DNA from: Candidatus Cloacimonadales bacterium
GTDB taxonomy: Bacteria > Cloacimonadota > Cloacimonadia > Cloacimonadales > DAONDQ01
Assembly: GCA_963662275.1 (NCBI GenBank)
Contig: OY759316.1
Location: forward strand, 1,824,001-1,888,000
Direction: 5' to 3'
DNA length: 64,000 nucleotides
Numbering within the stretch: the stretch's first letter is position 1; every line of letters begins with the position of its first letter. A model generated the notes under the pieces. It was not told the DNA's origin and did not search any database. It saw only the letters and a program-made list of their open reading frames with translations. Shown in pieces: positions 16,030 to 60,300 of the stretch. The translations under genes were made by a program, and so were the position numbers.

Positions 16030-16056
16030 TTGACGAGTTTACCCATAGGTTAACTT
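16030..16056 (+). promoter_or_regulatory. putative TA promoter/operator
   Basis: TTGACG followed by imperfect palindrome AGTTTACCCATAGGTTAACT directly before the toxin ORF. Confidence 0.45.
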
Positions 16057-16912: not shown

Positions 16913-16915
16913 TTC

Positions 16916-18442: not shown

Positions 18443-18547
18443 TTGAAGAGCATAGCCGTTTGAAAACAGCGTTCCATTGTTGAAGAGCATAGCCGTTTGA
18501 AAACAGCGTTCCATTGTTGCAGAGAATAGCCGTTTGAAAACAGCGTT
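18443..18547. repeat. 37-bp tandem repeat x3
   Basis: TTGAAGAGCATAGCCGTTTGAAAACAGCGTTCCATTG at 18443, 18480 and 18517; its core recurs in reverse at 29441-29466. Confidence 0.85.
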
Positions 18548-18653
18548 ACGTTATAATGCCACCCCTAAAAGGGTTTGGGAATTGGGATGTGCCGCATGTT
18601 TCCTGAGGTTCCACTTCGTTCCACCACAGGCTATCGGATTTAGAACAGCAGTC

Positions 18654-38383: not shown

Positions 38384-38393
38384 GGGAGCAAAC

Positions 38394-42351: not shown

Positions 42352-45300
42352 TCAATCAGCAGTCGACAAATATCTGCAGCCTATACCTGTAATAATACTA
42401 ACTCCACCTGCCTGTGGGATTACTTGGATTTGATTTGTGATACGTTCTTTGATTGCTGGAACATGTGATATGATGCCAATTAATTTCCCTTCATTGTTTA
42501 ATGCGGCAAGATTTTCCAGAGCTATTTCTAAGCTGTCTTCATCCAATGAACCAAATCCTTCATCCAAAAACAGAGAGTCGATCCTTACTTTCTGGCTGGA
42601 CATCGCTGATAAGCCGAGAGCAAGGGATAAGCTGACAATGAAGCTTTCGCCACCTGATAAATTCTTGATAGTTCGAATCTCTCCGCCTTGGTAATTGTCT
42701 ATAATATTCAGTTCCAAGGAATCACTTTCACTATTAATTAGAAGGTAGCGATCAGATAGTTTTTGTAGTTGAGCATTGGCATGAGCTATGAGCATTTCAA
42801 AAGTAATGCCCTGAACAAAACCGCGGTACTTCTTGCCATCAGCAGAGCCAATCAAATCGTTTAGCATTTCCCAACGGGTAAGCTGCGATTTTTGCAGGTT
42901 AATTTGGTGATATTGCTCAGCTTGTGCGGTTTTTTGTTTATTATCTTCTTTCAGTTGCGCCTCGATGGTGCCACTTTCACGGTTTAATTGACTCATTTGT
43001 TCCAAAAGGGTTGCGGAGTAACTTTTAAGCTCATGCATTTCGCTTGTGGTAAGCTGCCTGGCGGTTTCAGTTTGTAGCTTTGTGTTGTTGTCATCGATCA
43101 GGGATTGAAGCCTGTTCTTCTCCTGATTAAGTTGTTCATCTCTATGGTTTAGCTCTTCAAATGTTTTCAGCGGCAGGATGGCTGCTTCAAAATCCTGAAG
43201 CGTAGTAAAGCCAGTTTGGGTAATGGCAGTTATAAATCCTGCACTGCTTAGCGTGTGCTGCTTCGTTGTTTCGCTAAATTGCTTCTCGGTTTTTTGCATG
43301 TTTTCCATTGCTCCTTGCAGATCAGAAGTGCTGGTTCCAAGCTTTAATTGCAGAGAGTTCAGAGTGGATTTTTGTTTGTTTAACCGCGTTATCCAGTTTT
43401 GTTCTTCGCTTTGCACATCTTTATCACCAAAGAGCTGTTGCCTCAGTCCAACTTTATCTTTTATTTGGGCTTGCATTGCCTCTATCTTCTGCAATATAGT
43501 TGCTGTCTGGTTGAGGTGATCTTGTGCTGTGGATTGCTTGGTTAACAATATTGTTTTCTTCTGGTTTAGCTCTGCTTGAAGCAATGCTTCATTATCTTTG
43601 TGCTTCTTCCAGTGATCCCTGGCAGTTTCCAGCATGGAAATAAGAGCTTTAGGTTTATCCAGATCAACCAGTTTCACATTCTGGGTATTGAGTTTGTTTG
43701 CTATGATTTGCTTTTCGGCAAAGATTTTGTCTCCCAAGTTGTTAACGGACTCAAAGCACCGATTATACTCCTCAGTAATGGCTTGCATTTCATATTCGAG
43801 ACCGAGCTTTGCTTGCTGCAATGTAGAAAGGCTTTGTTTTTTCTGATTATGCTCCCGCTCCAACGCTATGATTTCTTTGCTTAGCTTTTCTCCTTTGGCG
43901 ATGATTGCAGCCAGTTTTTGATTTTCTGTGCGATTTGTGGAAATAAGTTTTTCAATCTTAAAAGCAGAAAGCTCGCTCAGGGATAGCTTGAGTTGTGCAC
44001 ATAAGGTTACCAGGCTCTGCCGATTCATGGTATCTTTCGTTTCATGATCCTGCAATAGTTGTTTTTGGAACTGCAGCCTTGTGCGAGTTTCTGTATGATT
44101 ATGTTCCTTGGCTTTCAGTTCCATCTGGAGCTTATTGTAAATGATGTTAAGTTCTTGCATGTCTTCAGCAAGAATATTCGGCACTGACGTTCCAGTATCG
44201 GCATAGGGATGATGCAGTGCTCCACAGAGGGGGCAGGCTTCATTGTCTTTCAGCAGCTTGCGTTCATCTTCCAGATTCACTTTTTTCTGTGAGAGTACTA
44301 ATATGGCGTTTTTATCCTCGAGGCTTTGCTCGGTGGATGCCAATTCTTTATTAAGCACAGTGATTTCACCGTCAAGCTGTATAATAAGTGCATTATCTGT
44401 GCTTATCTGTTTATTCGTAATACTTATAGCGCTTTGGCTTGAGGTATGGGCATTGTATAGGTTTTGCAGTTCAATGAGCTTATTGGCATAGTCGCTAATT
44501 TCTTGCAGATTATTGCGATAGTACGTGATATCATGTTCACATAATAGATCTTCCAGGGATGCTGTTAGGTCATTTTTGCTGATTTGAGTGACAGAGAGAG
44601 CGCTCTGCATGGCTTCCATCTGTAGGATAGTATTCTGTAGTTCGGTTGCCTTGGCTTTATTATCAGCAGCTATAAGTTTGATCTTGGCTTTGCCCTGCTC
44701 CTTTTCCATATCTACTAAGCGCTGGAATTGGTCTAAAAGCAGCGGAAGAGAGCCCTCAAGCTCTGCGTCCTGTGCGTGTTTTTCCTGATAATCGTGCACG
44801 GCTTTAAGATTTTGTTCTGCAGTATTTATTTCAGCTTCGAGACCACTGATTTCTGTGGCAATACCTTGGTATTTGGTTTCTAAATCCCTCTTATCGTCCT
44901 GCAGGGTTAAAAGGGCACTTTGTTGGGTCTGGATCAGAGTGTCCAATTCTCTTACCTGAAGGAAAATCTTCTGATTAGTGGTATCTTGCAATTCTGCTGC
45001 ATTTACCAGTTCTTGTTGCTGTTGTAACTCGAGGGTAACAGACCTGGTAAGGATTTCCAATGTGGTAGTCTTTTCTTGGTATCCCTCAAAATCAGACTTA
45101 AGCTCTTCAAGACGCTTAGCAAGAGATTTTACATTACTGTGCTCCCCCAAAAGAGGCTGAGTTTTACGGGCATTTTCCAGATGTAAACGCTGGGGGGCGA
45201 AATCCTTGATCTGATCCTGCAGTGCGCATAGATTTGTCTTGCTCTCGCTAATCTCTTGGTTTAGACGCAGCAAATTTTCTTTCCAGGAGATCAGAGCATT

Positions 45301-46029
45301 GGCTTCCTCGATGTTTTGTTTCAAGCCCTTTTCTTGTGCGCCTAATTCCATCAGCCTGGCTTGCAGTTCACCGCATTCATCCTGGCTCAATACCTGATAG
45401 GCATTCACCAGTCCCAGTAATCTGCTAAGTAATTCCCGCTCGTGATTCCTGCGTTGAAACACTTCTACCGAAATTTTACTATATATATCTGTACCTGTGA
45501 TTTGCTCCAGAATGGTTGCACGCTCATTAATATCAGCTTTCAAGAAAACATCAAAACCACCTTGCGCCAAGAGCATGGAGCGGGTAAAACGCTTGAAATC
45601 CATGCCGGTGACTTCTTCTACCTTATCCTTCACAGTGACAATTGTACTGGCTATGATAGTAATTTCTTCTGCAACCAATGCAATTTCATGGCTGGGGTTT
45701 TGCAACTTTCCATCTACTTTGTTTCGAGCCTTTTTTTGACTCCAATGGCATAAATAGCTTCCTTGACTTGTCTCAAACTGAACTTCTGCAAAACAACTTG
45801 CCGTCTTGCGAGACATTATATCGTTTCCTGATTGATTTACTCGTTTCAGACGCGGTGTCTCTGCATAAAGGGCAAGACAAATTGCATCCAATATAGTAGA
45901 TTTACCAGCTCCAGTAGGTCCGATTATTGCAAATATTCCATTATTGACAAAGCTGGTATTAGTAAAATCTATCTCCCATTCTCCCTCCAAGGAATTCAAG
46001 TTTTGAAATCTCAGCTTTTGTATTCTCAT
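42352..46029 (-). CDS. sbcC: SbcC/Rad50-like SMC ATPase
   Basis: 'GPTGAGKSTILDAICLALY', long coiled coil with zinc hook CPLCG, 'LSGGE', 'LFLDEGFGSLD'. Confidence 0.95.
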   Translation of the reverse strand: MRIQKLRFQNLNSLEGEWEIDFTNTSFVNNGIFAIIGPTGAGKSTILDAICLALYAETPRLKRVNQSGNDIMSRKTASCFAEVQFETSQGSYLCHWSQKKARNKVDGKLQNPSHEIALVAEEITIIASTIVTVKDKVEEVTGMDFKRFTRSMLLAQGGFDVFLKADINERATILEQITGTDIYSKISVEVFQRRNHERELLSRLLGLVNAYQVLSQDECGELQARLMELGAQEKGLKQNIEEANALISWKENLLRLNQEISESKTNLCALQDQIKDFAPQRLHLENARKTQPLLGEHSNVKSLAKRLEELKSDFEGYQEKTTTLEILTRSVTLELQQQQELVNAAELQDTTNQKIFLQVRELDTLIQTQQSALLTLQDDKRDLETKYQGIATEISGLEAEINTAEQNLKAVHDYQEKHAQDAELEGSLPLLLDQFQRLVDMEKEQGKAKIKLIAADNKAKATELQNTILQMEAMQSALSVTQISKNDLTASLEDLLCEHDITYYRNNLQEISDYANKLIELQNLYNAHTSSQSAISITNKQISTDNALIIQLDGEITVLNKELASTEQSLEDKNAILVLSQKKVNLEDERKLLKDNEACPLCGALHHPYADTGTSVPNILAEDMQELNIIYNKLQMELKAKEHNHTETRTRLQFQKQLLQDHETKDTMNRQSLVTLCAQLKLSLSELSAFKIEKLISTNRTENQKLAAIIAKGEKLSKEIIALEREHNQKKQSLSTLQQAKLGLEYEMQAITEEYNRCFESVNNLGDKIFAEKQIIANKLNTQNVKLVDLDKPKALISMLETARDHWKKHKDNEALLQAELNQKKTILLTKQSTAQDHLNQTATILQKIEAMQAQIKDKVGLRQQLFGDKDVQSEEQNWITRLNKQKSTLNSLQLKLGTSTSDLQGAMENMQKTEKQFSETTKQHTLSSAGFITAITQTGFTTLQDFEAAILPLKTFEELNHRDEQLNQEKNRLQSLIDDNNTKLQTETARQLTTSEMHELKSYSATLLEQMSQLNRESGTIEAQLKEDNKQKTAQAEQYHQINLQKSQLTRWEMLNDLIGSADGKKYRGFVQGITFEMLIAHANAQLQKLSDRYLLINSESDSLELNIIDNYQGGEIRTIKNLSGGESFIVSLSLALGLSAMSSQKVRIDSLFLDEGFGSLDEDSLEIALENLAALNNEGKLIGIISHVPAIKERITNQIQVIPQAGGVSIITGIGCRYLSTAD

Positions 46030-47264
46030 TTTGCTTCCTCCGCGTTGGGATCACTCTCTGATAGCATTTGCATAATTTCGTTATAGCAGTTTCGCAGTTC
46101 TAATGATTGAGGTTCATCAATCCCATGCTTTTGAAGGCAGCGTTCAAAAACTTGAATCGTACTGAGATCATCCAAACTCTCATTCAAAGCAGTAGCTGAA
46201 AGTGCCCTACGCATTATACGTTCATTTTTCAAACGTAAAAGCTCAACATCAGTACCAGAAATAATAGACTCAATATCTTCTTTGAGAGATGGTAGAATTT
46301 CATCGCCTGTATAGTAGACTTCAATCCAACATGGTTCACCTTGTTCAACAATCAAATTTAGCTCACTTAAAATTGCGTCCCAGTTACCTTCTATGCTCAA
46401 AAGTCTATTATTCTGTGGGATAGTAATCGGATTGACTGTGGTTTGGGTATCAGAAATATCAATAATTAGCACCTGTTTTTCGTGATCAGCTTCCTTAAAA
46501 CTTAGAGGAAGAGGTGAACCGCTATAACGCAGATTATCCCTACCTTTGATTATTTGCTGTGAATGCAAATGCCCCAATGCGACATAATTGATCTCTGCGG
46601 GGAAAAGGTCTGCCGGAACATACAACAGATTTCCAATATATAGCTCTCTGACTGCTTCCCCTTCTTGTAAGCAGCCTCCAGAAGCAAAGAGATGCCCCAA
46701 TGCAACGATCGGTGGATGGTTTTTGTCTTTTGCTTGAACATCAAACGCTATACTAAAGACATCTTGATAATGTTTAGTGATCCCTGCAAGTAACTTCTGT
46801 TCTTTTTGCTCAATGGATTCATAGGCTTCTATACTACGGATATCGCGTTCTCGGAGGTATGGTACCGCACAAACAATCAAAACACATTTGCCTTCTGCAT
46901 TCTTTATCAGCAAAACCTCATCCGAGGGATTTTCAGTCTTACTTCCTACAACGTGAATTCCCAAGTGCTTAAGCAACCCGCCAGGGGCATTTAAAAAAGT
47001 GGGAGAATCGTGATTGCCACCGATTATGACAATATTTTGACAAGAAGTTTGTTTCATCTGCCACAAGAACTCGTAATACAACTCTTGAGCCCTGCTTCCC
47101 GGCAACGCAGAATCAAACACATCACCAGATACCAAGAGCACTTCTATTTGCTCAGTATTAATTGTGCTAATTAACCAAGATAAGAACTCCCGCTGTTCTG
47201 CATAGCGTTTGTGTCCCATCAAACTGATACCCAGATGCCAATCAGATGTATGTAGAATTCTCAT
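46026..47264 (-). CDS. sbcD: SbcD/Mre11-like nuclease
   Basis: 'ILHTSDWHLG', 'GDVFD', 'GNHDS', 'ALGHLH'; ATGA overlap with sbcC. Confidence 0.95.
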   Translation of the reverse strand: MRILHTSDWHLGISLMGHKRYAEQREFLSWLISTINTEQIEVLLVSGDVFDSALPGSRAQELYYEFLWQMKQTSCQNIVIIGGNHDSPTFLNAPGGLLKHLGIHVVGSKTENPSDEVLLIKNAEGKCVLIVCAVPYLRERDIRSIEAYESIEQKEQKLLAGITKHYQDVFSIAFDVQAKDKNHPPIVALGHLFASGGCLQEGEAVRELYIGNLLYVPADLFPAEINYVALGHLHSQQIIKGRDNLRYSGSPLPLSFKEADHEKQVLIIDISDTQTTVNPITIPQNNRLLSIEGNWDAILSELNLIVEQGEPCWIEVYYTGDEILPSLKEDIESIISGTDVELLRLKNERIMRRALSATALNESLDDLSTIQVFERCLQKHGIDEPQSLELRNCYNEIMQMLSESDPNAEEAK

Positions 47265-47394: not shown

Positions 47395-49509
47395 CTAATT
47401 GACATCCAGACATAGTTTAACAGCCAGTTCCTTACTAATCTCTACTGGAGTACTGTTTTTCAGTCTTTTTAATATTGCTTCGATAGATTTATCTTTCAGC
47501 CAGTATTGTAGATACTCGTGAAGTTGCATCTCAAGTGGAAGCATCATTTGAAATATGGATTGTGCAGTGGTCTTATCAAACAATTTATGGAAGATATCTT
47601 CGTATTCTAAAGGATTATCAGGGAGTGACGCCCATGATAGCGGAGAACTTATGGTCATCGATATGTCATCAGTTTCAAATTCAAAATGACCTGCTTCCAA
47701 TGCTATTGCTCTATTGACTATCTTACCACCAAAAGTGTAATAACGGATACTACCCAGGGATTTTACATATGGGATCGACATCAAGTTTATTGTGTCATGG
47801 GCAACTTTCCGTAATGCATCAAAATAGGAGCAAAGTTTTGGTTCTATAAACTTAAAACAATCAGAATCTGAGTTTAGCATTCTCCAGGTGCGGTCGACAA
47901 TAAATGGGTCAATACAAATTTTGCCACCTGGATACATAAAATCGATTGGATTTCTTCTATTTTCAGTAGGATCAAGTGTTATGGAATCCGGAGAAATTTT
48001 CTTTACGATCCAATATTTACCATGAAAGCGAACAACACTACCCTTATGCAACTTAATTAAGTTAATCTCTGGTACTTCTCCCAGATTCTTAGCCCCATGC
48101 TGAATCCTAATGGATTTTGATCCTAAGCTGAAGTTTCCATAGATCATCCGTAAGTCAACAAGCTGGAACAGTTTCTCGTAAGCCGCATACTTGTATTTAT
48201 AATCGTGTTTAAGGACATACTCTTTATCAGCCAATTCAGAAAGAAGAGAGTCAAGTTTAGGTCTATCAAGATAAGAAATATAACGCACAAGATCATTTAA
48301 ATCAGCAACTTTTACAAATTTTCCTTCATTTGCAGCAATGATACTTAAACACTGTTGTGTTAAAGCACCATACAATTCATAAGGTGTCCTTTGGGAAACC
48401 TCTCCATTAATAGAGCAATCGGTTAAAACACAGAACTTTAAAACATCTATCATTAGCTTCTTACTTGTATCAGGAATCAGGCATATGACATTTACTTTGT
48501 TGGACCTTCTGTTTCCTCTCCCAATTCTTTGCATAAATGCTTCAACACTACTTGGAACATCCCAAACTATTACTGCATCTATATCTCCAATATCAATACC
48601 TAATTCTAGGGTACTTGTCGCAATGCATATCGCTGAGTTTAAAGACGCAAATTTCTCTTCAGTCTCGATGCGAACTTGTTGAGATAAAGATGAATAATGC
48701 ACTAACAATCTTTGTGACAGCATCGTTGATTGACTCAAGCATGAGGCAAGACGCTCACATTCTTTTCTGGAGTCGGCAAAGACCAACAGCTTCAGATTAT
48801 TGCCCATCATGAGCCTTTCAATTAACTGCCGGAACTCTGACAAGTGCCTAACATGTCTTATTTGACAATCAATCATTCTTTCAGATGGGTAGTTAAAGAA
48901 ATCTGCTTTTTCCGTAGAACCCATCAAAAAGTCGCGGACACAAGACACATCACCAATTGTTGCAGAAAGTGCGGCCCATTGAATTGGCTGACCTACTAAA
49001 CCCATTAAACGGTGTAGAAGAATCGATAACTGCAACCCACGTTGCGTATTGTATAGTATATGAACCTCATCCAAGATGATAGCTTTTACAGTTTGAATAC
49101 ACTTTTCTTTTCTAAAGAGAAGAACGTCGAGTGATTCTGGAGTAGTTATCAGGATATGTGGTTTTTGGCAAAGGACAAGATCATCTCGATCTCCGTGCCT
49201 AATGCCAACCTTGAGACCAAGGGAAGCGAGAGGAATTGATAATCGTTTTTCAAGGTCATTGACCAGGGCTTTTGTAGGCGAAATGTAAATCAGAAACAAC
49301 TCATTGTTTGTGATTGCATCAATCCAGAACCTACTTACAATAGGGGCAACTACTGCTTCAGTTTTCCCTGAGCCTGTCCCTGAAGTTAGCACTATATTCC
49401 TCCCAGTCACTAACGGTTCTATCACCGCTTCTTGAGAAATACGTATTGAACAAAAACTGCCGTAAAAAGCAGTTGCTACTCTTTTGTCTAACAGATCTAC
49501 TGATCTCAC
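47395..49509 (-). CDS. Lhr-like DEAD/DEAH helicase (BrxHI/SngC-like)
   Basis: 'SGTGSGKTEA', 'SPTKALVND', 'TTPESLD', DEVH, LSAT, 'TSTLELGIDIG', 'QRIGRGNR'; GTG start overlaps the upstream TGA. Confidence 0.88.
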   Translation of the reverse strand: MRSVDLLDKRVATAFYGSFCSIRISQEAVIEPLVTGRNIVLTSGTGSGKTEAVVAPIVSRFWIDAITNNELFLIYISPTKALVNDLEKRLSIPLASLGLKVGIRHGDRDDLVLCQKPHILITTPESLDVLLFRKEKCIQTVKAIILDEVHILYNTQRGLQLSILLHRLMGLVGQPIQWAALSATIGDVSCVRDFLMGSTEKADFFNYPSERMIDCQIRHVRHLSEFRQLIERLMMGNNLKLLVFADSRKECERLASCLSQSTMLSQRLLVHYSSLSQQVRIETEEKFASLNSAICIATSTLELGIDIGDIDAVIVWDVPSSVEAFMQRIGRGNRRSNKVNVICLIPDTSKKLMIDVLKFCVLTDCSINGEVSQRTPYELYGALTQQCLSIIAANEGKFVKVADLNDLVRYISYLDRPKLDSLLSELADKEYVLKHDYKYKYAAYEKLFQLVDLRMIYGNFSLGSKSIRIQHGAKNLGEVPEINLIKLHKGSVVRFHGKYWIVKKISPDSITLDPTENRRNPIDFMYPGGKICIDPFIVDRTWRMLNSDSDCFKFIEPKLCSYFDALRKVAHDTINLMSIPYVKSLGSIRYYTFGGKIVNRAIALEAGHFEFETDDISMTISSPLSWASLPDNPLEYEDIFHKLFDKTTAQSIFQMMLPLEMQLHEYLQYWLKDKSIEAILKRLKNSTPVEISKELAVKLCLDVN

Positions 49510-50693
49510 ATTGATTCCTGAAACAGATCGTCGAGAGCTTCCACAACTTTTATGATTACATTTCTGACCCTATCCTGAATTTGAACAGCAGCAGCTTTTC
49601 TAACAACCGATTTGAGCTGTGAATCCAACATTATGGTATCAGGTTCCCAATCATATGCAATACCATGTACATCAAAGATTAATAGTGATAGCTCCTCAAG
49701 TTCAATTGTTTGCAATGGACTCATTTCATAAATAGGTAGTTTATCGAATCTAGCGTAATCAAAATCCCACCTTTCCTTCCTCAGTAGAACGCCTTTGCAC
49801 TTTTCAGCAAATTCAGGTGTCACGGCATAGAAAGTTTTTCCAGGGAATAATTTCCCTGAATAAAAATGGAAAAGATTCCAAAAAGCAGTTTCTTGAAATC
49901 TAATATTCCTAAGGTTTGTGATAACATCTTCAAACTCGTCAAAAAGAACAATGAATCCACTTAGCCCAGACTGTTTGCACAAAGTATTAATATCTCTAAG
50001 GATTGCCCAACTCTGTTCATGCCCGTTTTTGTTCATCACAAAAACGTCATCATCGTAGAATTTCCAATCCGGTCTGGGGTCTCTGAAATAAATCCGCAAA
50101 TCAGTGACCAAAGTCTTAAATAGTATTCTTCTCTGACTATTATAAGCTGATGGTTGGTAAAACCAATCCATTATTGTTTCTTGAACTGATTCAATTCCTG
50201 TTGCCCAAGCTCTTATTGCTACATACATTGCCTTAGAATCAAGTACTTCAGAATAATCCCATTTACCATTATTGCACAAATTTTTAAAGTACTCATTATC
50301 AGCTAGTCCTTGATTAATTTTCTTCGTGAACAAATCAAATAAAAGTGATAGTCCCTTATAGTTTTGTAATCCTGGTATTTGGATATTGCGGCATACAGCA
50401 CCAAGAATCTGATCCATACGATTAAATCGGACTGCTGAGTTAGCATCTAAAGTAACAGAACTTACAGCATAGTTCTTTTCTAAGGCTTCTTCTCGAATGA
50501 ATTTCAATAAATGTGTTTTCCCTGAGCCATAGTTTGCCTTTAATAAAAGAACTGTACCGTTGTGTGTATTTAGTCTCTCTGAAAGATCATTAATCTCATG
50601 TTTGCGTCCTACAGTAAAATGCCTTACAAATCCTTCCGGAGGGATACCATTACGAAGCGATTCGATAATAATCTGTGCTTGTTGGGTATTCAT
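49506..50693 (-). CDS. DUF2791/BrxD-like P-loop ATPase (second copy)
   Basis: 'IIESLRNGIPP..FTVGR', Walker A 'ANYGSGKTH', Walker B 'IVLFDE'. Confidence 0.82.
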   Translation of the reverse strand: MNTQQAQIIIESLRNGIPPEGFVRHFTVGRKHEINDLSERLNTHNGTVLLLKANYGSGKTHLLKFIREEALEKNYAVSSVTLDANSAVRFNRMDQILGAVCRNIQIPGLQNYKGLSLLFDLFTKKINQGLADNEYFKNLCNNGKWDYSEVLDSKAMYVAIRAWATGIESVQETIMDWFYQPSAYNSQRRILFKTLVTDLRIYFRDPRPDWKFYDDDVFVMNKNGHEQSWAILRDINTLCKQSGLSGFIVLFDEFEDVITNLRNIRFQETAFWNLFHFYSGKLFPGKTFYAVTPEFAEKCKGVLLRKERWDFDYARFDKLPIYEMSPLQTIELEELSLLIFDVHGIAYDWEPDTIMLDSQLKSVVRKAAAVQIQDRVRNVIIKVVEALDDLFQESM

Positions 50694-50698
50694 ATCAC

Positions 50699-51967
50699 CT
50701 ACTCGTTTCTTAAACGCTCCATAACATCGTCGTAGAGCTTTTCTGTGGGTCTAACTTCTCCCTCGAGATGATCATCAAAATCAGCTATCATGGAAGAAAC
50801 CAATAATCTCCAAAACCTGATACCTGCTAAATGAGAATGTTGCTGGAATAAATCAAGGACACGTTTTTCGACAGCAGTATCCTCAGGTAGTAAGTCAGAA
50901 GCTTCAGGGAATGCACTTATGTATATTTTTTTTATTTTAATTGCTGCCTCTTGATAGTCTTTTAGCTCAGTTTGTACAGCATCAAGATTCCATATCGTAT
51001 CCAAGGCTCTTGGATATCTATTGTCGTCTGGCTTTCCTATTCTTCCAGATAATGCTCCATATATCACAATTCCAAACTTAGGATCTGAGTAAAAGTCAGG
51101 GGTCGTCGCATATATCAAAAACAAACCAGGAAGAGATTCAATGTTGTTTATTAATGATAATAGATTGTTATGAGCTTCTCTCAATACTGATTGACGCATT
51201 ACTGAATAAGCTTGCTCAGCTTCATCAAATAGGATCAATAATCCCTTGTAACCTGATAATCTGACAAATCCTGCCAATGATTGTAGCATGATCTTAGCAT
51301 TATCTTTTGTAATCAATTTACTAACACCAAATTGCTTTCTATATACTCCAATACTCCCTTCTCCACAAAACCATTGCAGTATTTCACCACGAGCTTGTTC
51401 CACAATGGATTCATCTGGAGCTTCAGGTAAGAACGTTTCCCAATACTTCTTAACCATTTTCTTAAAATCGATATCAATACTATGATCAGCCATTAACTTT
51501 TCAGTTGCCTTTTGGTAGTTATCATAGGATATATTGCTTTCTGTGGAGTGTACTCCTGTCGATAGCCAAGCTAATGATTCTCGAATTACTGTTCCGAATG
51601 GAGCAATTTCATTTATACAGTTACCGGCATAGTACGATGGAGTTGCTACCATCCTTACTATTGCTGCAAAGACACTTTGGAATTTATTTAGAGCTGCGCT
51701 ACTCTTTTCAAGTTCTACATTTGAGACTAGGCAGTTGTTCTGCAAAGCAAGTTCCCTCAACTGGCGGAAAAAATGTGTTTTTCCAGAACCCCAAGAACCA
51801 CTAACAAATCTGATAATGCCATGATTTGACATACCGGAAAAATGGAATCGTTTGATTCCATCCATAATTTTCTCATTACCCACTGAGTATAAATCAACGC
51901 CTTTTTGCGGAGGAATTCCGGTACGTAATGATTCAACTACCTGGGATGCAATATTCTGATTACTCAT
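50699..51967 (-). CDS. DUF2791/BrxD-like P-loop ATPase (first copy)
   Basis: 'VVESLRTGIPP', Walker A 'GSWGSGKTHF', 'GYKGLLILFDEAE', 'ATTPDFY', 'ALSGRI'. Confidence 0.85.
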   Translation of the reverse strand: MSNQNIASQVVESLRTGIPPQKGVDLYSVGNEKIMDGIKRFHFSGMSNHGIIRFVSGSWGSGKTHFFRQLRELALQNNCLVSNVELEKSSAALNKFQSVFAAIVRMVATPSYYAGNCINEIAPFGTVIRESLAWLSTGVHSTESNISYDNYQKATEKLMADHSIDIDFKKMVKKYWETFLPEAPDESIVEQARGEILQWFCGEGSIGVYRKQFGVSKLITKDNAKIMLQSLAGFVRLSGYKGLLILFDEAEQAYSVMRQSVLREAHNNLLSLINNIESLPGLFLIYATTPDFYSDPKFGIVIYGALSGRIGKPDDNRYPRALDTIWNLDAVQTELKDYQEAAIKIKKIYISAFPEASDLLPEDTAVEKRVLDLFQQHSHLAGIRFWRLLVSSMIADFDDHLEGEVRPTEKLYDDVMERLRNE

Positions 51968-52791
51968 AGTTTCTCCTTAAAAATCATAAAACCAATATAT
52001 CCCCGAGCGGCTGCACCACTTAAAAGGATGCCTTGGTTTGTATCTTTTGTTTGTTGCAAATCAATAGCACGACCATCTATTTCAAAAGGACCCTTTTCAG
52101 CTAAGTATGACAGATCAGTAATGAACTCATCCATACGAAATCCCTTGTCTTTCTTTCTTAGAAGCTTGGTTATATCTTTGATTGGTACACTCGAACCATC
52201 CGGCAAGTGTTCTTTATTTATAATGTACTTATAGTTAGCCCGTAATTGTTTGAGAAAATTACTGCCATGAAATCTTCTGCCAAAAACACGAGTATATTCC
52301 TTTCGGATGATTTCAACAACAGCTTCAATATCTGCAGGTATTTCTGCTAATTTACCTTCATTGTCAATAAGTCTCGCCATGCGTTTAGTTTCGAGTATTT
52401 CCAGTCGAAAAAAACCATTTTTGATACCGTATTTAGGATGAGGGCTGTTCACATCCAACAAAATTCTGGATGATTTACACGCTTCATCAAGTAGCGACGG
52501 ATAACGCCTAAATATCCTATCCGCATCTTCTTTCGCAAGTCGGTATGCCTCTTCTAAATAATTCAGTTCAAGAGGTTTATCCAACCGCATCTTTTTTAGT
52601 CGTTCTGCTTCACGATCAGCCAATGTTAAGAAGTGCATTGACCACCCCTTAGACAGACAATCTAACAAATCGGTGAATAACCGCTCTCTTTTAAAGGTCT
52701 CCTCAGTTTCAGCTTTTAGCTTTTGGTATTGTTCACTTAAACTATTCTTAAGCTGTCGTACTGAGTTAATAATGTCATTATTAAACTCCAT
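51964..52791 (-). CDS. hypothetical protein (coiled-coil N-terminus), first gene of the ATPase-ATPase-helicase module
   Basis: 275 aa; overlaps the brxL stop by 11 nt and the next gene by ATGA; no family recognised. Confidence 0.7.
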   Translation of the reverse strand: MEFNNDIINSVRQLKNSLSEQYQKLKAETEETFKRERLFTDLLDCLSKGWSMHFLTLADREAERLKKMRLDKPLELNYLEEAYRLAKEDADRIFRRYPSLLDEACKSSRILLDVNSPHPKYGIKNGFFRLEILETKRMARLIDNEGKLAEIPADIEAVVEIIRKEYTRVFGRRFHGSNFLKQLRANYKYIINKEHLPDGSSVPIKDITKLLRKKDKGFRMDEFITDLSYLAEKGPFEIDGRAIDLQQTKDTNQGILLSGAAARGYIGFMIFKEKL

Positions 52792-54868
52792 GTTTTGCTC
52801 CGTCTATTTGTAATTCATGCTGTTTTACATACGTCACTTCAAAAGCCCGACAAAGTCTATACCTTTGATTTCTGTTAGTAATCGCAAAGGCATCTTTGTA
52901 ATCATACTGCTGAAAGATGTCGAGTCCTCTACCAAGGATTATCTTCCAGCCTGTATCAGTTTGGATGTAGCGGTCATGTATGGATTCATCGTATTCATAC
53001 GTGAAGAGGATACCCATTGCGATACATGACTCCTGGATTTGTTTAAGGAAAGAATCCTGCTGAGAATCGTCAAAGTCACTGGGTTTGGTTAACAGGTGCA
53101 CTTCAACCTCATCAGCATCTGATTTTCCGAGAGCAATAGTCTCCATCAGTTCCATCAGGTTCTTGGACTGATAGAAGGCACTGATGTAGGGGTCTTTGAT
53201 TTCTAACTTAGTTGCTCCCTCCAGATACTTCCCGAAAAGCTTCTTATAAGATATTCCACTTTGGTTCTCTTTGATGACTATATTCCCTGCTTTGAGAATA
53301 AGCGTTTCTGGCGCATCTTTCTGCTTGGGTTGAGTATTTTCACCAGATACGGGTTCAGTCGCCAAAATGGGCGTTAAATCGTCCTCTGTTTCGGGAATTT
53401 GAGCATTATAGTAAAGCGGATATTGAATCTCCTCTGTGGTTTTCACAAAATACAGCTTTTGCTCTTTATCAGAATAGGCAAAACGCACCGGTTCATAAGT
53501 GGTGTCAATTCGCATAAGCTGGTCTTTGACTCGTTTCCTGCCTTCCATAGAAAATTGAAGTAATTCTTCAATTTCTTCCTTTGAAGCTTTTTGATTGGGA
53601 TAGATAACTTTCATCAACCCGGAGAATGTCTTTTGCACACCATCCCGGTCACGAGTCGAGATATCTGAAACGAGATCAAAGTGCTCTTTATACAATTGCG
53701 AATAATCAGAATTACGAAAAGCTCTTAGTATCTCTGCCAGATAATCCACTACAAACCCATAACCATCAGAGAACATCTCTCCTCTGATTATTGGCACTTC
53801 CCAACCGGGCAGATAGCCATGCAACCTATCAAGAAAGGCTGAATCATAGTACTTTTCGGGCAGCTCGTCAAACAGGTCAGAGTTCTTCAGCATGTAAGCT
53901 ACATTATGGCGTGTATTGCCCACAAATGTCATCGAAGCTTCTGCACCCAAGGTTTCGATACCTCTGGAGAAGGTCTTATTTGCCATATAGTTTTTCATGA
54001 TGTCCACTAAGGCTTTATCCACCGTCTTTTTCTTTCCGGCAAATTCATCAAAGGCAACCACATCCCAATAGCCTACCAGTCCGATTCTGCCATTGGAGTT
54101 ATTCACGAATAGCTTAGGAACAGACACTTCTCCACCTGAGATCAAAATCCCATGAGGAGAGAACTCAGAATAGATATGTGATTTTCCGGTACCCTTAGGT
54201 CCAAGCTCTATTAGGTTATAGTTTCTTTCACAATACGGCACCAGACGTGTAAGCTGCATTAGCTTCAATCTGCGGCTCATGGTTTCAGGGTTGAAGCCGA
54301 TACTCTGGATTAGCAGGTCTATCCACTCATCAGAAGTAAATTCTGTCCGCTTTTCCAGGAAGGCATCCATATCAAATTTGGATAGCTGCACTGGCTTTAT
54401 GGAACTCATTATCCAAGGGACGCTGTTCTTATCCTCAGTATAAACGTATTCAAGCTCTGAGATGCACCAGACACCGCTCACTAAGAGCTTCGGGTGCTTC
54501 TTTATAGTGTCAGAATCAACTACGACCTTACTGATACCCAGGCTGGAAAATGAAGCTTCATAACAGTCGTTTTTATCATTCAAAGATACGGAAATTTTAT
54601 CTATGACTTTATGCCTGCCCTTTTCCTTGATGATGGATTTGATAAGACCAGCTTCATTGCGATGCACATAATGCTTGGCAAGGATATCTTTGACTGTGTC
54701 GATGCCTGCCAAGATAGTCGCTTCGTCAGATGATGCACAGTATTGCCCAAGAAGGTATTCCAAAACGTATGTCGGGACAATTGCATTACCCTTTACGGTT
54801 TTGACTAAGTCTTTCCTGACTACCAAGCCCTGAAAGTGTTCATTGATTTTCTCATCCAATTTGGTCAT
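52781..54868 (-). CDS. brxL: BrxL-like AAA+ protein with a C-terminal MIT_C/PLD-like domain instead of a Lon protease domain
   Basis: 'VPTYVLEYLLGQYC', 'ELGPKGTGKSH', 'VAFDE', 'AFLDRLH'; tail 'IKDPYI...SIHDRYIQTDTGWKIILGRGLDIFQ'; probable ATG at 54868. Confidence 0.85.
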   Translation of the reverse strand: MTKLDEKINEHFQGLVVRKDLVKTVKGNAIVPTYVLEYLLGQYCASSDEATILAGIDTVKDILAKHYVHRNEAGLIKSIIKEKGRHKVIDKISVSLNDKNDCYEASFSSLGISKVVVDSDTIKKHPKLLVSGVWCISELEYVYTEDKNSVPWIMSSIKPVQLSKFDMDAFLEKRTEFTSDEWIDLLIQSIGFNPETMSRRLKLMQLTRLVPYCERNYNLIELGPKGTGKSHIYSEFSPHGILISGGEVSVPKLFVNNSNGRIGLVGYWDVVAFDEFAGKKKTVDKALVDIMKNYMANKTFSRGIETLGAEASMTFVGNTRHNVAYMLKNSDLFDELPEKYYDSAFLDRLHGYLPGWEVPIIRGEMFSDGYGFVVDYLAEILRAFRNSDYSQLYKEHFDLVSDISTRDRDGVQKTFSGLMKVIYPNQKASKEEIEELLQFSMEGRKRVKDQLMRIDTTYEPVRFAYSDKEQKLYFVKTTEEIQYPLYYNAQIPETEDDLTPILATEPVSGENTQPKQKDAPETLILKAGNIVIKENQSGISYKKLFGKYLEGATKLEIKDPYISAFYQSKNLMELMETIALGKSDADEVEVHLLTKPSDFDDSQQDSFLKQIQESCIAMGILFTYEYDESIHDRYIQTDTGWKIILGRGLDIFQQYDYKDAFAITNRNQRYRLCRAFEVTYVKQHELQIDGAKHGV

Positions 54869-54881
54869 GTTTACCCCTTGA

Positions 54882-57377
54882 TTAAAAATCAAAATCCGAT
54901 GTGAAAGAGCGTCTCAAAGTATAGCTCTCGGTTTTGTATATCTGGAATTTGTTTGTTCCCGGTATCGGTTTTTCCAGCCTTAGGATTACATCCTGATTAT
55001 TAGCTTTTTCTGCCTTTCTTGACAGCATCAGCTTACAGGTTATTTCTCGTTCTCTGGGACTATCAGATGTGTAATTAAACGAGATATTCTTTTCTTCTGA
55101 AATCAACTCATCTTGCTGATTGTAAATCCCAATCCGCAGATTAATAGGCTGCAATTTATCGCTAATCGGTTCTTTCTGGTAGAGATTTATGACTAACTGC
55201 CCGGCTGAGATGATCCTTCCACTACTGCTAATGATCTCGACAGTAACAAAATCGACATCACTTACCCGTTTTTTATTGATCTTCAGCACAGGGATAGTGA
55301 TTTCCTGTAATGATGCTCCACCATGCACATACCTACTGCCGGAGCCACTCAACCTCATTCTTTGATTCCCTCTCGGAATGAGAGCTTCTATAGAACCATC
55401 TAAGCCCAATTGCTTTGACTTGAAGTGGATTAAAGAAGGATTAGCTTTCAATTCCTTTCCCAAGATAAAGCGTCTATCTTTATACAAGACTTGTCCTGAG
55501 ATTGTATCCTCACTCAGGAAGTCACTGGTATCCAGTTCACTATGTTGGTAGAGGAAACCATGATCAGCAGTAATTATGATATTGTTGGCATTGCCGGAAG
55601 TAAGCTTACGAACCACATCTATCAGCTCATATAGAGAGGCTTCCACCGCTTCAAAGACCTTTGTTTCAGTAGGCAGTTTATCACCCATAGCATCAATTCT
55701 ATTATGATAGATATAAATTACATCATATTCCCGATAGAGCTTCTTGCTTTCATCCGAAGTCTTTGCCAAAACCTCATCAACAGTCATAATCAGCGTTCTC
55801 TTGGGAAGGTATTTGTCCATTATCTTTGCCCGATTCTCTCTTCCACTGCTATTCATGCCATCTACTATTACGTTCCCGGTCACATCATCAGAAATAGATA
55901 ACAACTGATGCGGTAGCAGAGCAGCCATTCCCAGTTGAGTATAGCTCGGAATCATACCCAGCGTAGCTTCTAATTCAGCTTCATATCTATCTTCCTGACG
56001 GATCAGGCTCATCAATTCAGTGGCTATTTCATAACGCAGAGCATCAGAGATTATCACGAATATCTTTTTGTTTGTCTCCAGATATGGAGTAATCTGCCTT
56101 TTCCAGAAACTGCTTTGAGGATAACTCTCAGTAGATCTCCATTCATTAGCATGATATACCTGCTCTGACCATAATGTGTTTAGCTTGAGCAGATACTCAT
56201 TTACATACTTGTTTTCAATCTGCTCATACAGATCGTTTAGTAAAGTTCGTTGTTTAGCCTGGCTGAAATGATAGATAAACTTACGATAGAAGAAGTCAAT
56301 TTTATACCACTCAGAGGTATAATATCGGATTCCATCCTGCATAGAATTGATTTGATAAAAGCTTGTTTTGATTAATGTCAGGAACTTAGCTGCCGCATCA
56401 AGGCAATCGTATTCATTGGAATAATCATCATACCAATGACTCATCATTCGCTGTCTTATTATAACCTCAGTTTCTCCTGTGGTAATAGTACCTTCATTAA
56501 TGAATTTGGTCAGCTCTGAGAGGATTTTACGTTCGATTAGTTCAAAGTAGTCAATGTCCAGCAGTTCTTTCAGTCCTCTTTTGTTTAGGTCGTTTTCTAT
56601 TCCTAACCATTCAGAGCAGTTTTCAGATAGAACTCTGAAAGCTCTTTTATGATGGATATTATCTTTCCATCGCTTTAGCAGGTAGATGGCTTCTATATTC
56701 AGCTTGGCTTTTTCATCAAATCCGGACTGGTAACATGCCTTGAAAAGCTCATAGGTAAAGTCTTTCACACTCGATTCACCGGACTCATAAGCAAGTAGCT
56801 TTTTTATCTGTTCCCATAAGAAAGTGCCGAGTTTGGCTTTTTGTATGAGGTTGTACTTCTCGCTTTTACTCAAAGCACATTCAGATAGCAGATTCATGAT
56901 TACTTCATCCCATCTGGCATCAGAACCGGCACACACAGCCAGCATTTTCCACATAATCTTGTTTTCTGTATCATCTGCAGAGAGCATCTTCTTGAGAGCT
57001 TCTATTCGTTTTGCTGAGGTAAAGAACTCCGTATGTTGTCTGGGAATATCAATAAACTCACGTCCCAATCCAAGTTCTGAAAGCCATAATGAAGGTTGGT
57101 CTATCTTTAGCTCTGCATTTGACAGCAGGATATCAGCCAACCAGTTTTCTTCAATAGAAGGTTTTATTCCTGCATTATACAATAGAAACTTGGCTTCTGG
57201 TTCGGATATCAGGACTCTGTACTTGATTCCATACTCGTTATTATCGATTACGATTCTTTGGATATCAGGTAAGTCAAAAGTATCAAAGTCAAAACGAAAT
57301 TCTTGATTCTCATCATACCAGAAGATGATGCGATGCTTGTCAAAGTGGCTTTTGATGATATTGGTTATTCTATCCAC
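54882..57377 (-). CDS. pglZ: BREX-1 PglZ (alkaline-phosphatase fold)
   Basis: 'RIIFWYD', 'IISDALRYE', 'PSYTQLGMAALLP', 'TADHGF', 'YVHGGASLQE'. Confidence 0.93.
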   Translation of the reverse strand: MDRITNIIKSHFDKHRIIFWYDENQEFRFDFDTFDLPDIQRIVIDNNEYGIKYRVLISEPEAKFLLYNAGIKPSIEENWLADILLSNAELKIDQPSLWLSELGLGREFIDIPRQHTEFFTSAKRIEALKKMLSADDTENKIMWKMLAVCAGSDARWDEVIMNLLSECALSKSEKYNLIQKAKLGTFLWEQIKKLLAYESGESSVKDFTYELFKACYQSGFDEKAKLNIEAIYLLKRWKDNIHHKRAFRVLSENCSEWLGIENDLNKRGLKELLDIDYFELIERKILSELTKFINEGTITTGETEVIIRQRMMSHWYDDYSNEYDCLDAAAKFLTLIKTSFYQINSMQDGIRYYTSEWYKIDFFYRKFIYHFSQAKQRTLLNDLYEQIENKYVNEYLLKLNTLWSEQVYHANEWRSTESYPQSSFWKRQITPYLETNKKIFVIISDALRYEIATELMSLIRQEDRYEAELEATLGMIPSYTQLGMAALLPHQLLSISDDVTGNVIVDGMNSSGRENRAKIMDKYLPKRTLIMTVDEVLAKTSDESKKLYREYDVIYIYHNRIDAMGDKLPTETKVFEAVEASLYELIDVVRKLTSGNANNIIITADHGFLYQHSELDTSDFLSEDTISGQVLYKDRRFILGKELKANPSLIHFKSKQLGLDGSIEALIPRGNQRMRLSGSGSRYVHGGASLQEITIPVLKINKKRVSDVDFVTVEIISSSGRIISAGQLVINLYQKEPISDKLQPINLRIGIYNQQDELISEEKNISFNYTSDSPREREITCKLMLSRKAEKANNQDVILRLEKPIPGTNKFQIYKTESYTLRRSFTSDFDF

Positions 57378-57385: not shown

Positions 57386-60300
57386 CTACTCCTCGCTCTT
57401 ATCCAGCCCAGGAATCTTCTTCAAGGCAGTACCGAATTTAGCATAGTTCACTTTCACTCCATCGTCCAGATCTATTTCTATCTTGGCAGCAGCCAGGTTG
57501 AAGATAACATTTCTTTCCCAGTTTTCGAGTTCAAGGATAGTAGCGGTGATCTTTTCCAGTTCTTTGCCTGCGATGATTTTATCTCTCTGGCAAGTGGAAG
57601 AGCTGATAATCTGATGTTCAAGATCAGCTTTCTTGGCATTGAGCTTAACCACAAATTCCCTTAAGTAATCGTTCAGGATAATTGAAGCCGTGTCAGGTGT
57701 GTAGCGGTGCATATAGATCAGGGCATTAAAACTGTCTTTGGGGCTGCTGAACAGCCAATAAATAGGTCTCTTCTTATAGCGTTTGATGTGGTCATTATAG
57801 AAATCCTTTAGGAAGTAGGAGCGCAGATCTTTGCCAATAGCTTCTTCAATGAACTGCAGATTCTGGCTGAAATTACTGTATCCAAAAGTAACCTTCAGGA
57901 ATTCCTTAAATCTCTCTACGATATCATCGGTAAACCACTCACCATCCAGAATGGGAATTACGTTGTCCTTATCCGGTATGAAGCTTGGATTAGGGACTTG
58001 CTTCAGATAATCATCTATAGTCTCTCCCTGATTAGCAAGGATCAACCCCGGCTTGTCTATTGAATATCTGCCAAGCATACATCCTAGAGCATAGGAAATA
58101 TACTCCTTCATAGTGTCGGATAGTAAGTCTGCTTCTAACTTTTCGTTTAAGGGAAATTCCTCTTTGAATTCTTGATTTGCTTCTTTAGAATAGCGATAGT
58201 AAGGATTGCAAGTAAGAGTGATTTCTTTGAGTGGAACGTCGGGAGAAAATTCGTTCTGTAGACCATATGCTTCTATGAAGATGCCGTTATTCTCTTCTTC
58301 TAAGCAATGCATTTCGATAGTATTATCTATCCATTGCTTTCTAAGATCAAAGTAAACTTCTTTTACAGACATTTGATCTAAATTCAACATCATTAAAAGA
58401 GGTGATCTTGTAAAGTTCCAGGAGGTTTCAAATGAATCCCAGTCTTGCTTAGAGACATTTAATAATAAATTGCTTAAATGGTCTATATTCCTTTTATTGA
58501 CTATGATTTTACTCTCTAACCATGGCAACGAGCCAACATTACCTACCTGAAAATTAAGAGTGGGATTAAGTATTTTCAAGAAGTTGAAGACTAATTTAGA
58601 GCACAAATAGGCAGACAATACCAATTGATAATCAGCTTTTTTTAAAAATGCTGAGCACCCCCCCATATCAAACAAAAACCCCGGATCAGATACTCTGACT
58701 CCAAAATAAGAAGAGCTCACGAACGACCATGTAATCGATTCTTTGTAATAGAAATTTTGAGACCTAGCAAAAGCCCTGCCGTTCGTAATTACATCATATC
58801 CATCATTTCCCCAATTGATAACGTACTCATTGTTGCCAAACCATTTTCGAAAAGAGCCTCCTTTGTTGTAAGGAAACCACTTATTTTTGCTTAAGATAGC
58901 GTCATTTTTACATGTATAACCGAATCCTGTTTTGGCATGACTCACCTCAAACCATAGTCTCAAAAATTGATCATTATCTCCCGTAGTCATACCACATACA
59001 ACGTTAGCAATATCAGATACTTTATCGGAATTTGCATAAATACTTCTAACTCTTTCGCTGACCCAATATGCTATAGGTGTTCCAGGAATATTAATAAAGT
59101 CAGAAGAAGAAGCCACAGCTAATCGACTGTTTTTGACTGGAAATTCTTTCGGAGTATTATTTTCATCTAAATCTTGGCAACTTAAATAGGAATAAGACCC
59201 TTTGAAGTTTGGATTTAAGAACTTTTGCCAAACTGTTGCAGATGTTCCAAAAGCTATACCCATAACCATATTATCCATGTGAACCATGCATTCAATAGTG
59301 TAATTATCTAAGAGATGACTTCTAAGTTTTTCGTATGAAGAAAGAAACATCCAACTTTGCATTGTTACTAATGCACAAAAGCCTCTATCTAAAACAAGTT
59401 CCAAACAGCGTTGAATAAACATTGCAAACAAATCTGATTTAGCTAACGGATAATTAGTTTTGGCAAAATCACTCAAGGTGTTATTCATCCCCTTACTTCC
59501 CATGTAAGGAGGATTTGTGACTACGATATGGTATTTGGAATTGAGATAATCTGCTTGTCTCAGGATTTTTACCACTGCTTTATGGGTTCCATAATACTCA
59601 GTATCATTGACTATCTCATTGTTATCTATTAACATGTTATAAGTTTCAACAACGTTGGTATCAGCAGGTACAATCAAAGAACCATATGTATTCGTTTCAG
59701 TAAATTGTTTCAGAGTGGTTTCCAGCTTTGCTGAAAAGACATCGTAACCAATCTTACGCATGTATTTATCAAGTTCATCTTCTGCTATGCTAACACTCGC
59801 CAAGACGCAAATGTTAGGTTCAATCTTCCGATTAAACCACAGCTTATCTTTGGCACGTGCTTTCATTGTCAATGCAAAGGCAGCCAATTCGCCAGCACGT
59901 TCATCGATTTCTATTCCAAAGAGATTGTTCTTAATGATCAATTGAGGAATCTCTACCAGATTAAAGCCATCTTCTTCATACATCGCATAGAGCAAGTCAA
60001 AAGCATAAGTAAGAACATGACCGCTCCCACTACAAGGGTCACAGAAACGAATCTCTTGTGGAGTATTTATTTTATGATAAGCAGTTTCAGATTGCTCTGC
60101 CTTTATGTAGTAACGCATGTTTTCCGATAAACTTGAATTCGCATGATTCAGTATCCACAATCTACCCAATGAATTCTCAACCATGAATCGTACAATCCAA
60201 TGGGGAGTAAATATCTGAGTGGCAGAAGGGATATCTTCGCTTTTTATCTTAATATTCTTACTTAAATCTTTAAAGACCTCGTCTTTCTTTTCTGAAATAT

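Follow-up and report, generated by a model that had tools for sequence, protein, structure and literature searches.

An A-B-C-D gene cassette appended to a BREX type 1 operon, with two ORC/Cdc6-clade ATPases and an Lhr-like helicase, as a candidate autonomous and mobile module

The window analyzed here is a stretch of 64,000 nucleotides from Candidatus Cloacimonadales bacterium (GenBank assembly GCA_963662275.1, contig OY759316.1, positions 1,824,001 to 1,888,000), and its subject is a run of four genes, A to D, that follows brxL on the minus strand at the end of a bacteriophage exclusion (BREX) type 1 operon (Table 1). With a confidence somewhat above even, we regard A-B-C-D as an autonomous, horizontally mobile cassette, distinct from both the BrxD-BrxHI pair and Shango, that has been appended to BREX type 1 in this genome. 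In order, brxL is followed by an open reading frame (ORF) of 275 aa (A), two BrxD-like ATPases (B and C), and an Lhr/BrxHI-like helicase (D). The brxL stop lies 11 nt within gene A, as read directly from the junction sequence; A and B overlap by 4 nt, B and C are separated by a 5-nt gap, and C and D overlap by 4 nt. These values are exactly those given in an earlier prediction made from the DNA letters (the original prediction). The BREX type 1 system is complete here because brxA and brxB lie just outside the window end, together with the N-terminal part of brxC (locus L145), and brxC, pglX, pglZ, and brxL lie inside it. All eleven genes from brxA through D are on the same strand, and the cassette and the BREX operon are probably co-transcribed in this genome, judging by their arrangement. 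The BrxL protein contains BrxL_N and BrxL_ATPase domains and a phospholipase D (PLD)-like C terminus (MIT_C; PF16565, 1.3e-42); according to part of PMC12839542, this C terminus corresponds to the HKD-endonuclease variant of BrxL.

One genome per species was scanned with a profile of A, and 33 loci were recovered. The four genes are intact and in order at 21 of them and colinear up to the contig end at six more; at four loci the order is kept despite broken frames or gene insertions (L011, L022, L026, and L033), one carries A-B-C without D (L024), and one carries A alone (L031). Because the four genes recur in other genomes with their order kept, the arrangement goes far beyond chance. The original prediction had treated the genes as one unit, which was borne out, and had named a lack of conservation in other genomes as grounds for abandoning the idea; the set proved to be conserved. 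Hosts of the 33 loci fall in at least 15 phylum-level groups, two of them archaeal (Methanoregula and a Methanosarcinaceae archaeon), and the mean column identity is 61% for A, 74% for B (24 orthologues), and 58% for C. The closest cassettes, at L001 and L005 in the same phylum, are 63 to 64% identical in A, 85% in B, and 74 to 80% in C; they share the junction pattern of the window (4-nt overlap, 5-nt gap, 4-nt overlap) and have no BREX neighbors. In L022 (Egbenema sp., 10800-18600), one and the same ORF pair (115 and 391 aa), probably an insertion sequence, breaks up the cassette at two points, in opposite orientations.

The cassette is also found on plasmids. On the 27-kb plasmid pDESTI.01 of Desulfomonile tiedjei DSM 6799, it comes after parA and a helix-turn-helix (HTH) gene and has no BREX; a second copy is on a 216-kb conjugative plasmid of Aulosira laxa. 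The RefSeq labels on pDESTI.01 are "hypothetical protein," "BREX system ATP-binding domain-containing protein" (twice), and "DEAD/DEAH box helicase," labels through which annotation tools could miscount such genes as BREX components. Among 61 related genomes, a strong match to A was found in one, that of the window itself, and a genome of the same genus lacks A. Integrase, relaxase, and rep genes are not recurrent neighbors of the cassette, and no fifth gene recurs. The commonest neighbor family, PADLOC PDC-S68 (a large RecD-like candidate defense protein), occurs at 3 of the 33 loci, each time on the same strand: L010 (6539-10189), L015 (4954-8664), and L032 (6025-9750), from the distant lineages Sedimentisphaerales, Armatimonadota, and Methanosarcinaceae.

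The flanks of the cassettes were scanned with PADLOC models over 227 ORFs (120 + 107), in flanks of varying length that include some short contigs. Canonical BREX genes adjoin the cassette at 4 of the 33 loci. In L006, BrxA, PglZ, and BrxC are encoded on the opposite strand; in L017, A-B-C-D comes after PglX, PglZ, and a BrxD and BrxHI that belong to the locus itself; in L024, BrxP lies beside A-B-C; and in L030, PglX is followed by A-B-C-D and then by PglZ and BrxL. Hma/DUF499 genes adjoin the cassette at one locus (L014). In ten carrier genomes without adjacent BREX, PglZ (PF08665, E≤1e-10) was absent from eight and located elsewhere in the genome in two. The core genes pglZ and brxC, together with pglX or brxP, accompany the cassette in the window, but among its relatives canonical BREX genes of any kind are limited to those four loci, which speaks against the cassette as an obligate BREX component. 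The scarcity of BREX neighbors, the absence of PglZ from 8 of 10 carriers, and the restriction of strong A matches to 1 of 61 related genomes argue that the cassette is autonomous and mobile. The first two observations also speak against the "new BREX subtype" of the original prediction as a general claim; co-occurrence with BREX, which it had proposed as a check, fell to those same four loci. A link to BREX does stand in the present locus, with its 11-nt brxL overlap, and L030 offers a second case, but the link is not supported for the cassette at large. The cassette has joined BREX operons independently, in two phyla and at two different positions.

Gene A had no match in Pfam, PADLOC 2.0.0, NCBIfam release 20, or PHROGs; a protein atlas search returned only clusters labeled "hypothetical protein," and tblastn found no match among 50,697 phage records. 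Its homologues form 115 clusters at 90% identity, nearly all of 267 to 296 aa and unnamed. Searched against 1.84 billion representatives, the A profile recovered 312 clusters (counted at 50% identity) at E≤1e-3, 228 at E≤1e-10, and 139 at E≤1e-30, a family new to the catalogue of defense-island genes. A fold prediction of this protein, proposed in the original prediction, was made for A by itself. The AlphaFold model (pLDDT, the predicted local distance difference test, 92.9; pTM, the predicted template modeling score, 0.80) comprises long N-terminal helices (residues 5-107), a four-stranded sheet (120-152) with flanking helices, and a predicted C-terminal winged helix (172-275). The last of these matches many winged-helix domains with Z scores of 5 to 6.3, including those of ORC1, Cdc6, Cdt1, and the kleisin Brn1; winged helices dominate the matches in a wide structure search, and Foldseek against the Protein Data Bank (PDB) gave no match at E≤0.001. 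The product was rejected as TerB/SngA, since Pfam gave no TerB, TerB_N, or TerB_C match at E≤0.01 and the hhalign probability against a genuine 763-aa SngA (L049) was 0.24%; the original prediction had likewise called the first gene non-TerB. It was also rejected as BrxE: the PADLOC BrxE model (PDLC02495) matches nothing in the genome at E≤10.

Genes B and C encode ATPases of the PF10923 (BrxC_BrxD) family. Against a gathering cutoff of 22.2 bits, B scored 159.1 bits (2.1e-46) and C 82 bits (5.3e-23), the best stretch in C covering only residues 3-134. The PADLOC BrxD and SngB models match both proteins (for B, 3.9e-38 and 4.9e-28, respectively), and on the NCBIfam BrxD equivalog (NF033438), B reached 125.6 bits and C 64 bits, both below the cutoff of 350; PHROGs gave no match for either. 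The two proteins are 25% identical over 325 aa, and their profiles are colinear over 370 columns (hhalign probability 99.8%), which makes them full-length paralogues. Walker A (GxGKT) and Walker B (DE) motifs are invariant or nearly so among 30 B and 29 C sequences, as the original prediction had read them in this pair despite its strong divergence, and both proteins would apparently be able to bind and hydrolyze ATP. A model of C (pLDDT 86.6, pTM 0.84) shows an AAA+ base, a lid, and a large insert made of helices (about residues 93-241), with no winged helix. Its best fold match is Cdc6/Orc1 of Sulfolobus solfataricus (2qby_B; Z 15.0, root-mean-square deviation 3.1, 236 residues aligned), followed by ORC2 of Aeropyrum pernix (1w5s_A; Z 14.5); TnsC, subunits of the origin recognition complex (ORC), RFC, and BrxC match with Z 10 to 13, and by Foldseek against PDB the best match is BrxC (9zdx, 4.6e-3). 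With PF10923 scores above gathering, the Walker motifs, and an initiator-type fold in the C model, B and C are AAA+ ATPases of the PF10923/ORC-Cdc6 clade.

A complex prediction in which residues 93-275 of A were scored against B and C as partners gave 0.45 (runs of 0.02, 0.45, and 0.45), with 0.00 for the best control, at least 71% agreement in contacts between runs, and partner pLDDT of at least 81. Of 157 solved complexes, 116 attained the mark used for such scores, as did 2 of 215 mismatched pairs, and at 0.60 or below only 18 of the 157 solved complexes passed, a range that holds both passing mismatches as well. The prediction thus weakly supports a contact between A and the ATPases.

Gene D matches the PADLOC BrxHI model at 4.1e-90 (301 bits), with residues 19-681 on profile positions 22-689 of 698; PADLOC supplies no curated cutoff for this model. 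Its score on the SngC model is lower (2.9e-70, 236 bits). Pfam finds DEAD and Helicase_C domains, and helicase motifs I, II (DEVH), III, and VI are present in the sequence. The best NCBIfam matches are Lhr-type helicases, all far under their cutoffs, the top one being a ligase-associated DNA-damage helicase. With its DExH core and colinear C-terminal region, D is an Lhr/BrxHI-type superfamily 2 (SF2) helicase.

The relationship of B and C to other ATPases was examined in a maximum-likelihood tree of 60 rows with Shimodaira-Hasegawa approximate likelihood ratio test (SH-aLRT) support. The B proteins of three cassette clades (two of which are described below) group together (SH-aLRT 83), as do the C proteins of all three (83), and the duplication into B and C therefore predates the cassette clades. 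SngB and SngB-like proteins form a group of their own (100) that excludes B and C, and BrxD falls outside a group of B, C, and SngB (92), although its own grouping is weak (40); neither B nor C is therefore BrxD or SngB. A genuine Shango from the same phylum (L049) served for comparison; it encodes a 763-aa SngA with TerB_N, TerB, and TerB_C domains, an SngB that scores 494 bits on PF10923, and SngC. Like the cassette, Shango stands alone and combines a PF10923 ATPase and an Lhr-like helicase with an accessory protein, but the accessory protein of the cassette is not TerB, the cassette has two ATPases where Shango has one, and SngB belongs to a separate clade. Assignment to Shango was rejected on these grounds and on the higher score of D for BrxHI than for SngC. 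Profile matches and tree thus agree with the view in the original prediction of a set related to, yet distinct from, BrxD/BrxHI and Shango. An SngB-like ATPase preceded by two unrelated proteins of 440 to 462 aa, which are not TerB, was found in L121 (4275-10700) and L137 (3643-8000); ATPases of this type are widespread and score about 555 bits on PF10923.

Two further and more distant clades of cassettes, which go beyond the original prediction, were found. Clade 2 was reached through weak A matches in related genomes and comprises three loci (L037, L038, and L052) with A' of 281 to 298 aa, B' of 411 to 415 aa, C' of 441 to 442 aa, and a shorter Lhr-like helicase D', which measures 517 to 530 aa in L038 and L052 and is truncated by the end of the contig in L037. 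In L037, a RhuM-family gene (1683-2420; PADLOC PDC-S05, 1.9e-107) lies between C' and the helicase. Clade 3 was reached through weak matches to the SngB model. Its genes encode three proteins, A'', B'', and C'', of about 253, 398, and 430 aa, respectively, and, in place of the helicase, a short BrxL of 485 to 504 aa that has BrxL_N and BrxL_ATPase domains and no C-terminal domain, a build like that of type 4 BrxL (about 490 aa) as given in part of PMC12839542. Within the phylum, 13 of 232 genomes carry A'', and A''-B''-C''-BrxL is complete at 10 of 11 loci, the 11th being cut by a contig end. Among 29 flanking ORFs, no PglZ, PglX, BrxP, or BrxC domain was found, and the contexts vary between genomes. 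A is homologous to A'' (residues 99-262, 151 columns, hhalign probability 91.3%, E 9.6e-7). Clades 2 and 3 both keep A+B+C, so A+B+C is the constant core and the motor, an SF2 helicase or a minichromosome maintenance (MCM)-like AAA+ protein, is exchangeable.

The nearest characterized arrangement within BREX is the BrxD-BrxHI pair of types 2 and 6, in which a PF10923 ATPase of the ORC/Cdc6 clade likewise lies adjacent to a colinear, full-length Lhr/Ski2-like helicase; the PADLOC models of this pair are the best matches for B and D. The cassette differs from it in the additional ATPase C and winged-helix protein A, in the position of B and C outside the BrxD clade (with B at 125.6 bits against the cutoff of 350), and in occurring mostly without BREX, even coexisting with a genuine BrxD-BrxHI pair in L017. 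The gene list of BREX type 6 comprises BrxE, a single BrxD, and BrxHI. Membership in this type was rejected, as no BrxE is found in the genome at E≤10 and the cassette has two ATPases against a single BrxD; in the BrxE-bearing genomes G274 and G268 (L126 and L127), a single BrxD and BrxHI come after pglZ, and no A-like ORF is present. BREX types 1 and 4 combine BrxL with the ORC-like BrxB and BrxC, so that ORC-clade ATPases stand beside an MCM-like BrxL as they do in clade 3, but the cassette ATPases are of the BrxD type and not of the BrxB or BrxC type. Part of PMC10164562 describes BrxL as resembling MCM, places BrxB, BrxC, and BrxD in the ORC clade, and suggests that ORC-clade BREX factors may act at replication origins; a passage in PMC12839542 proposes BrxD as a possible loader of BrxHI.

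These comparisons allow a mechanism to be proposed. B and C would act jointly as an ATP-dependent, ORC/Cdc6-like DNA sensor or loader, and A would supply the winged helix wanting in these ATPases and contact them. The A-B-C complex might then recruit or load a DNA motor onto invading DNA, the motor here being the putative Lhr-type 3'-5' helicase D and in sister clade 3 the short MCM-like BrxL. The motor could unwind replication or entry intermediates of the invader or strip proteins from them, after which it, or host nucleases, would block the invader; because no recognizable effector domain is present in the cassette, restriction would have to be the work of the motor or of nucleases encoded outside the cassette. 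Where it follows BREX, the cassette probably contributes a second layer of motor and loader, but it does not depend on BREX. The cassette recalls the loading of MCM by archaeal and eukaryotic ORC-Cdc6 (with Cdt1), in that C folds like Cdc6/Orc1 and two initiator-type ATPases are encoded with a winged-helix protein and a motor, either a helicase or an MCM-like ring. In the cassette, however, the winged helix is on a separate protein, and the motor in this clade is an SF2 helicase and not a ring. The likeness is an analogy, and no membership is claimed. A broader reading, in which A+B+C is a portable, ORC/Cdc6-like licensing module of prokaryotic immunity whose two initiator-type ATPases and separate winged-helix subunit place one of two motors, the Lhr-type SF2 helicase or the MCM-like ring of BrxL, on foreign DNA, is doubtful and offered as speculation. 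If it is true, the stand-alone cassettes represent the minimal motor-loading step of BREX (BrxB/BrxC with BrxL, and BrxD with BrxHI) and of Shango and would open the way in which BREX halts phage replication to direct experiment.

A role in defense is probable by homology to these systems. At 24 of the 33 loci, at least one flanking ORF matches a PADLOC model, a lenient count because some of the models are generic (helicase, kinase, repeat); the models include type I, II, and IIG restriction-modification, CBASS, AbiE, MADS-like, PD-T4-6, and PDC families. Several observations weigh against the interpretation of an autonomous defense cassette. The case for defense consists of homology to BrxD/BrxHI and SngB/SngC and of gene neighborhood, nine of the 33 loci have no PADLOC-type neighbor, and clade 2 loci and many clade 3 cassettes lie among ordinary genes. 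The cassette contains no recognizable nuclease, methyltransferase, or membrane effector domain. For A, the winged-helix matches are generic and reach middling scores (Z about 6), and one of the three complex prediction runs scored 0.02. The groupings of B and of C are moderately supported (83), and the tree tool flags long branches meeting. Finally, a promoter and terminator scan gave nothing that convincingly separates or joins brxL, the cassette, and sbcD: the scan counted 17 promoter-like sites, fewer than the mean of 26.1 in shuffled sequences, and picked up no terminator-like site between D and sbcD.

Other explanations were considered against this background. An integral extension of BREX, amounting to a new subtype whose function depends on PglX, PglZ, and BrxC in the way that BrxD and BrxHI depend on them in types 2 and 6, would account for the same-strand, 11-nt overlap with brxL, for the position between pglX and pglZ-brxL in L030, for BREX or BREX-related neighbors at 5 of the 33 loci (including L024, where A-B-C without D adjoins BrxP), and for the best scores of B and D on the BrxD and BrxHI models. 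We consider it improbable: 28 of the 33 loci lack any BREX or BREX-related gene in the flanks examined, PglZ is missing from 8 of the 10 carrier genomes searched, B and C sit outside the BrxD clade with B well under the NCBIfam cutoff, and type 6 loci, with one BrxD and no A-like gene, have the BrxE that this genome lacks. L017 carries both BrxD-BrxHI and A-B-C-D, and the two sets are therefore not equivalent. Very unlikely, in our estimate, is a Shango variant of the same mechanism and family with SngA replaced. Its attraction lies in the SngB match of B, the SngC match of D, the common layout of accessory protein, ATPase, and helicase, and the group of B, C, and SngB without BrxD (92), but A shows no TerB-family match and no likeness to the L049 SngA, the two ATPases arose by a duplication older than the three-clade split, SngB keeps to its own group (100) without B and C, and the BrxD and BrxHI models outscore those of SngB and SngC.

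The nearest characterized relatives of the cassette, Shango and BREX BrxD/BrxHI, belong to defense systems, PADLOC-type neighbors are frequent, two phyla have the cassette embedded in a BREX operon, no gene for an integrase, a relaxase, or Rep turns up repeatedly next to it, and the 50,697 phage records hold no match. For these reasons, it is unlikely to be a replication-initiation, maintenance, or DNA-repair module of mobile elements with no part in immunity, despite the resemblance of C to archaeal Cdc6/Orc1, a motor that is either a helicase or the MCM-like BrxL, the place after parA and an HTH gene on pDESTI.01, the frequent lack of defense neighbors in clades 2 and 3, and the DNA-damage helicase as top, though far subthreshold, NCBIfam match of D. 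On an axis separate from these, the cassette and BREX may be mere defense-island neighbors in this genome, functionally uncoupled. This is a serious if less than even possibility, since elsewhere the cassette is autonomous, its closest relatives (L001 and L005) lie apart from any BREX neighbor, and BREX operons often take inserted genes such as the YhcG-type nuclease of the window; the 11-nt coding overlap and shared strand favor co-transcription and possibly translational coupling instead, and adjacency to BREX recurs in independent phyla.

No PADLOC 2.0.0, NCBIfam, or Pfam model covers the four genes, in keeping with the statement in the original prediction that the set matches no described system, and to our knowledge DefenseFinder has no model for such a cassette. 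A literature search found no description of it; the supplementary neighborhood tables of PMC12839542 or the founding BREX paper may show such loci under other labels. Two names tried for the cassette belong to different systems as far as parts of the preprints describe them, MANTIS/Gao_RL (bioRxiv 10.64898/2026.09.23.753747) and ARMADA (bioRxiv 10.1101/2025.09.15.676423). Taken together, the original prediction stands for the unit, the lack of a model, the non-TerB first gene, and the kinship with Shango and BrxD, and falls for the general BREX subtype. How BREX and Shango block phage is unsettled, and what BrxD, BrxHI, and BrxL do is so far a matter of guesswork. The cassette is small, with four genes, no modification enzyme, 58 to 74% mean column identity across phyla, and two interchangeable motors; if it protects alone, it would be a minimal system in which to ask whether ORC-like ATPases load helicases onto invading DNA.

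Table 1. Features of the window (positions counted from its first nucleotide)
Feature	Position	Strand	Remarks
HKD+Snf2 protein, then type IIG restriction-methyltransferase-like protein	7032-14537	+	PADLOC C3a139 5.5e-129 (HKD+Snf2); second protein 1177 aa
Large ORF	31652-35179	-	1175 aa, length equal to PglX; no PADLOC match at E≤1e-6
TnsB-like transposase and two small ORFs	36311-39673	+	PADLOC TnsB 1.6e-8; 45-47% GC versus about 38% around
TOTE-type archaeo-eukaryotic primase fused to SF2 helicase	40306-42351	+	PF22548 1.8e-74, ResIII; PADLOC PrimPol 9.4e-77
sbcD and sbcC	42352-47264	-	after D, across a 130-nt AT-rich gap
gene D	47395-49509	-	704 aa, Lhr/BrxHI-like SF2 (DEVH) helicase
gene C	49506-50693	-	395 aa, second AAA+ ATPase, more diverged paralogue
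gene B	50699-51967	-	422 aa, BrxD/SngB-family ORC/Cdc6-clade AAA+ ATPase, better conserved paralogue
gene A	51964-52791	-	275 aa, unnamed family
brxL	52781-54892	-	final canonical BREX type 1 gene; PADLOC BrxL 1104 bits
pglZ	54882-57377	-	PADLOC and Pfam
pglX	57386-60913	-	PADLOC and Pfam
YhcG-type PD-(D/E)xK nuclease	60927-62090	-	PADLOC and Pfam; between brxC and pglX
brxC	62099 to window end (64000)	-	PADLOC and Pfam; N-terminal part past window end

The nuclease gene within the BREX operon is of the YhcG/DUF1016 type (PADLOC PDC-S02, 2.1e-124; Pfam YhcG_C and DUF1016_N). Beyond the cassette, SbcD was found in 5 of 21 related genomes and is absent from the same-genus genome; given this rarity, the sbcCD pair may belong to the island and not to the core genome. 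It was rejected as a conserved partner of the cassette, as an SbcD or SbcC relative lies beside the cassette at 1 of the 33 loci, L012, where SbcD-like and structural maintenance of chromosomes (SMC)-like genes directly follow D. The primase-helicase gene faces the island, and the stretch with the TnsB-like transposase is possibly a transposon at the island border. The HKD+Snf2 and type IIG-like genes constitute a second defense locus in the window.

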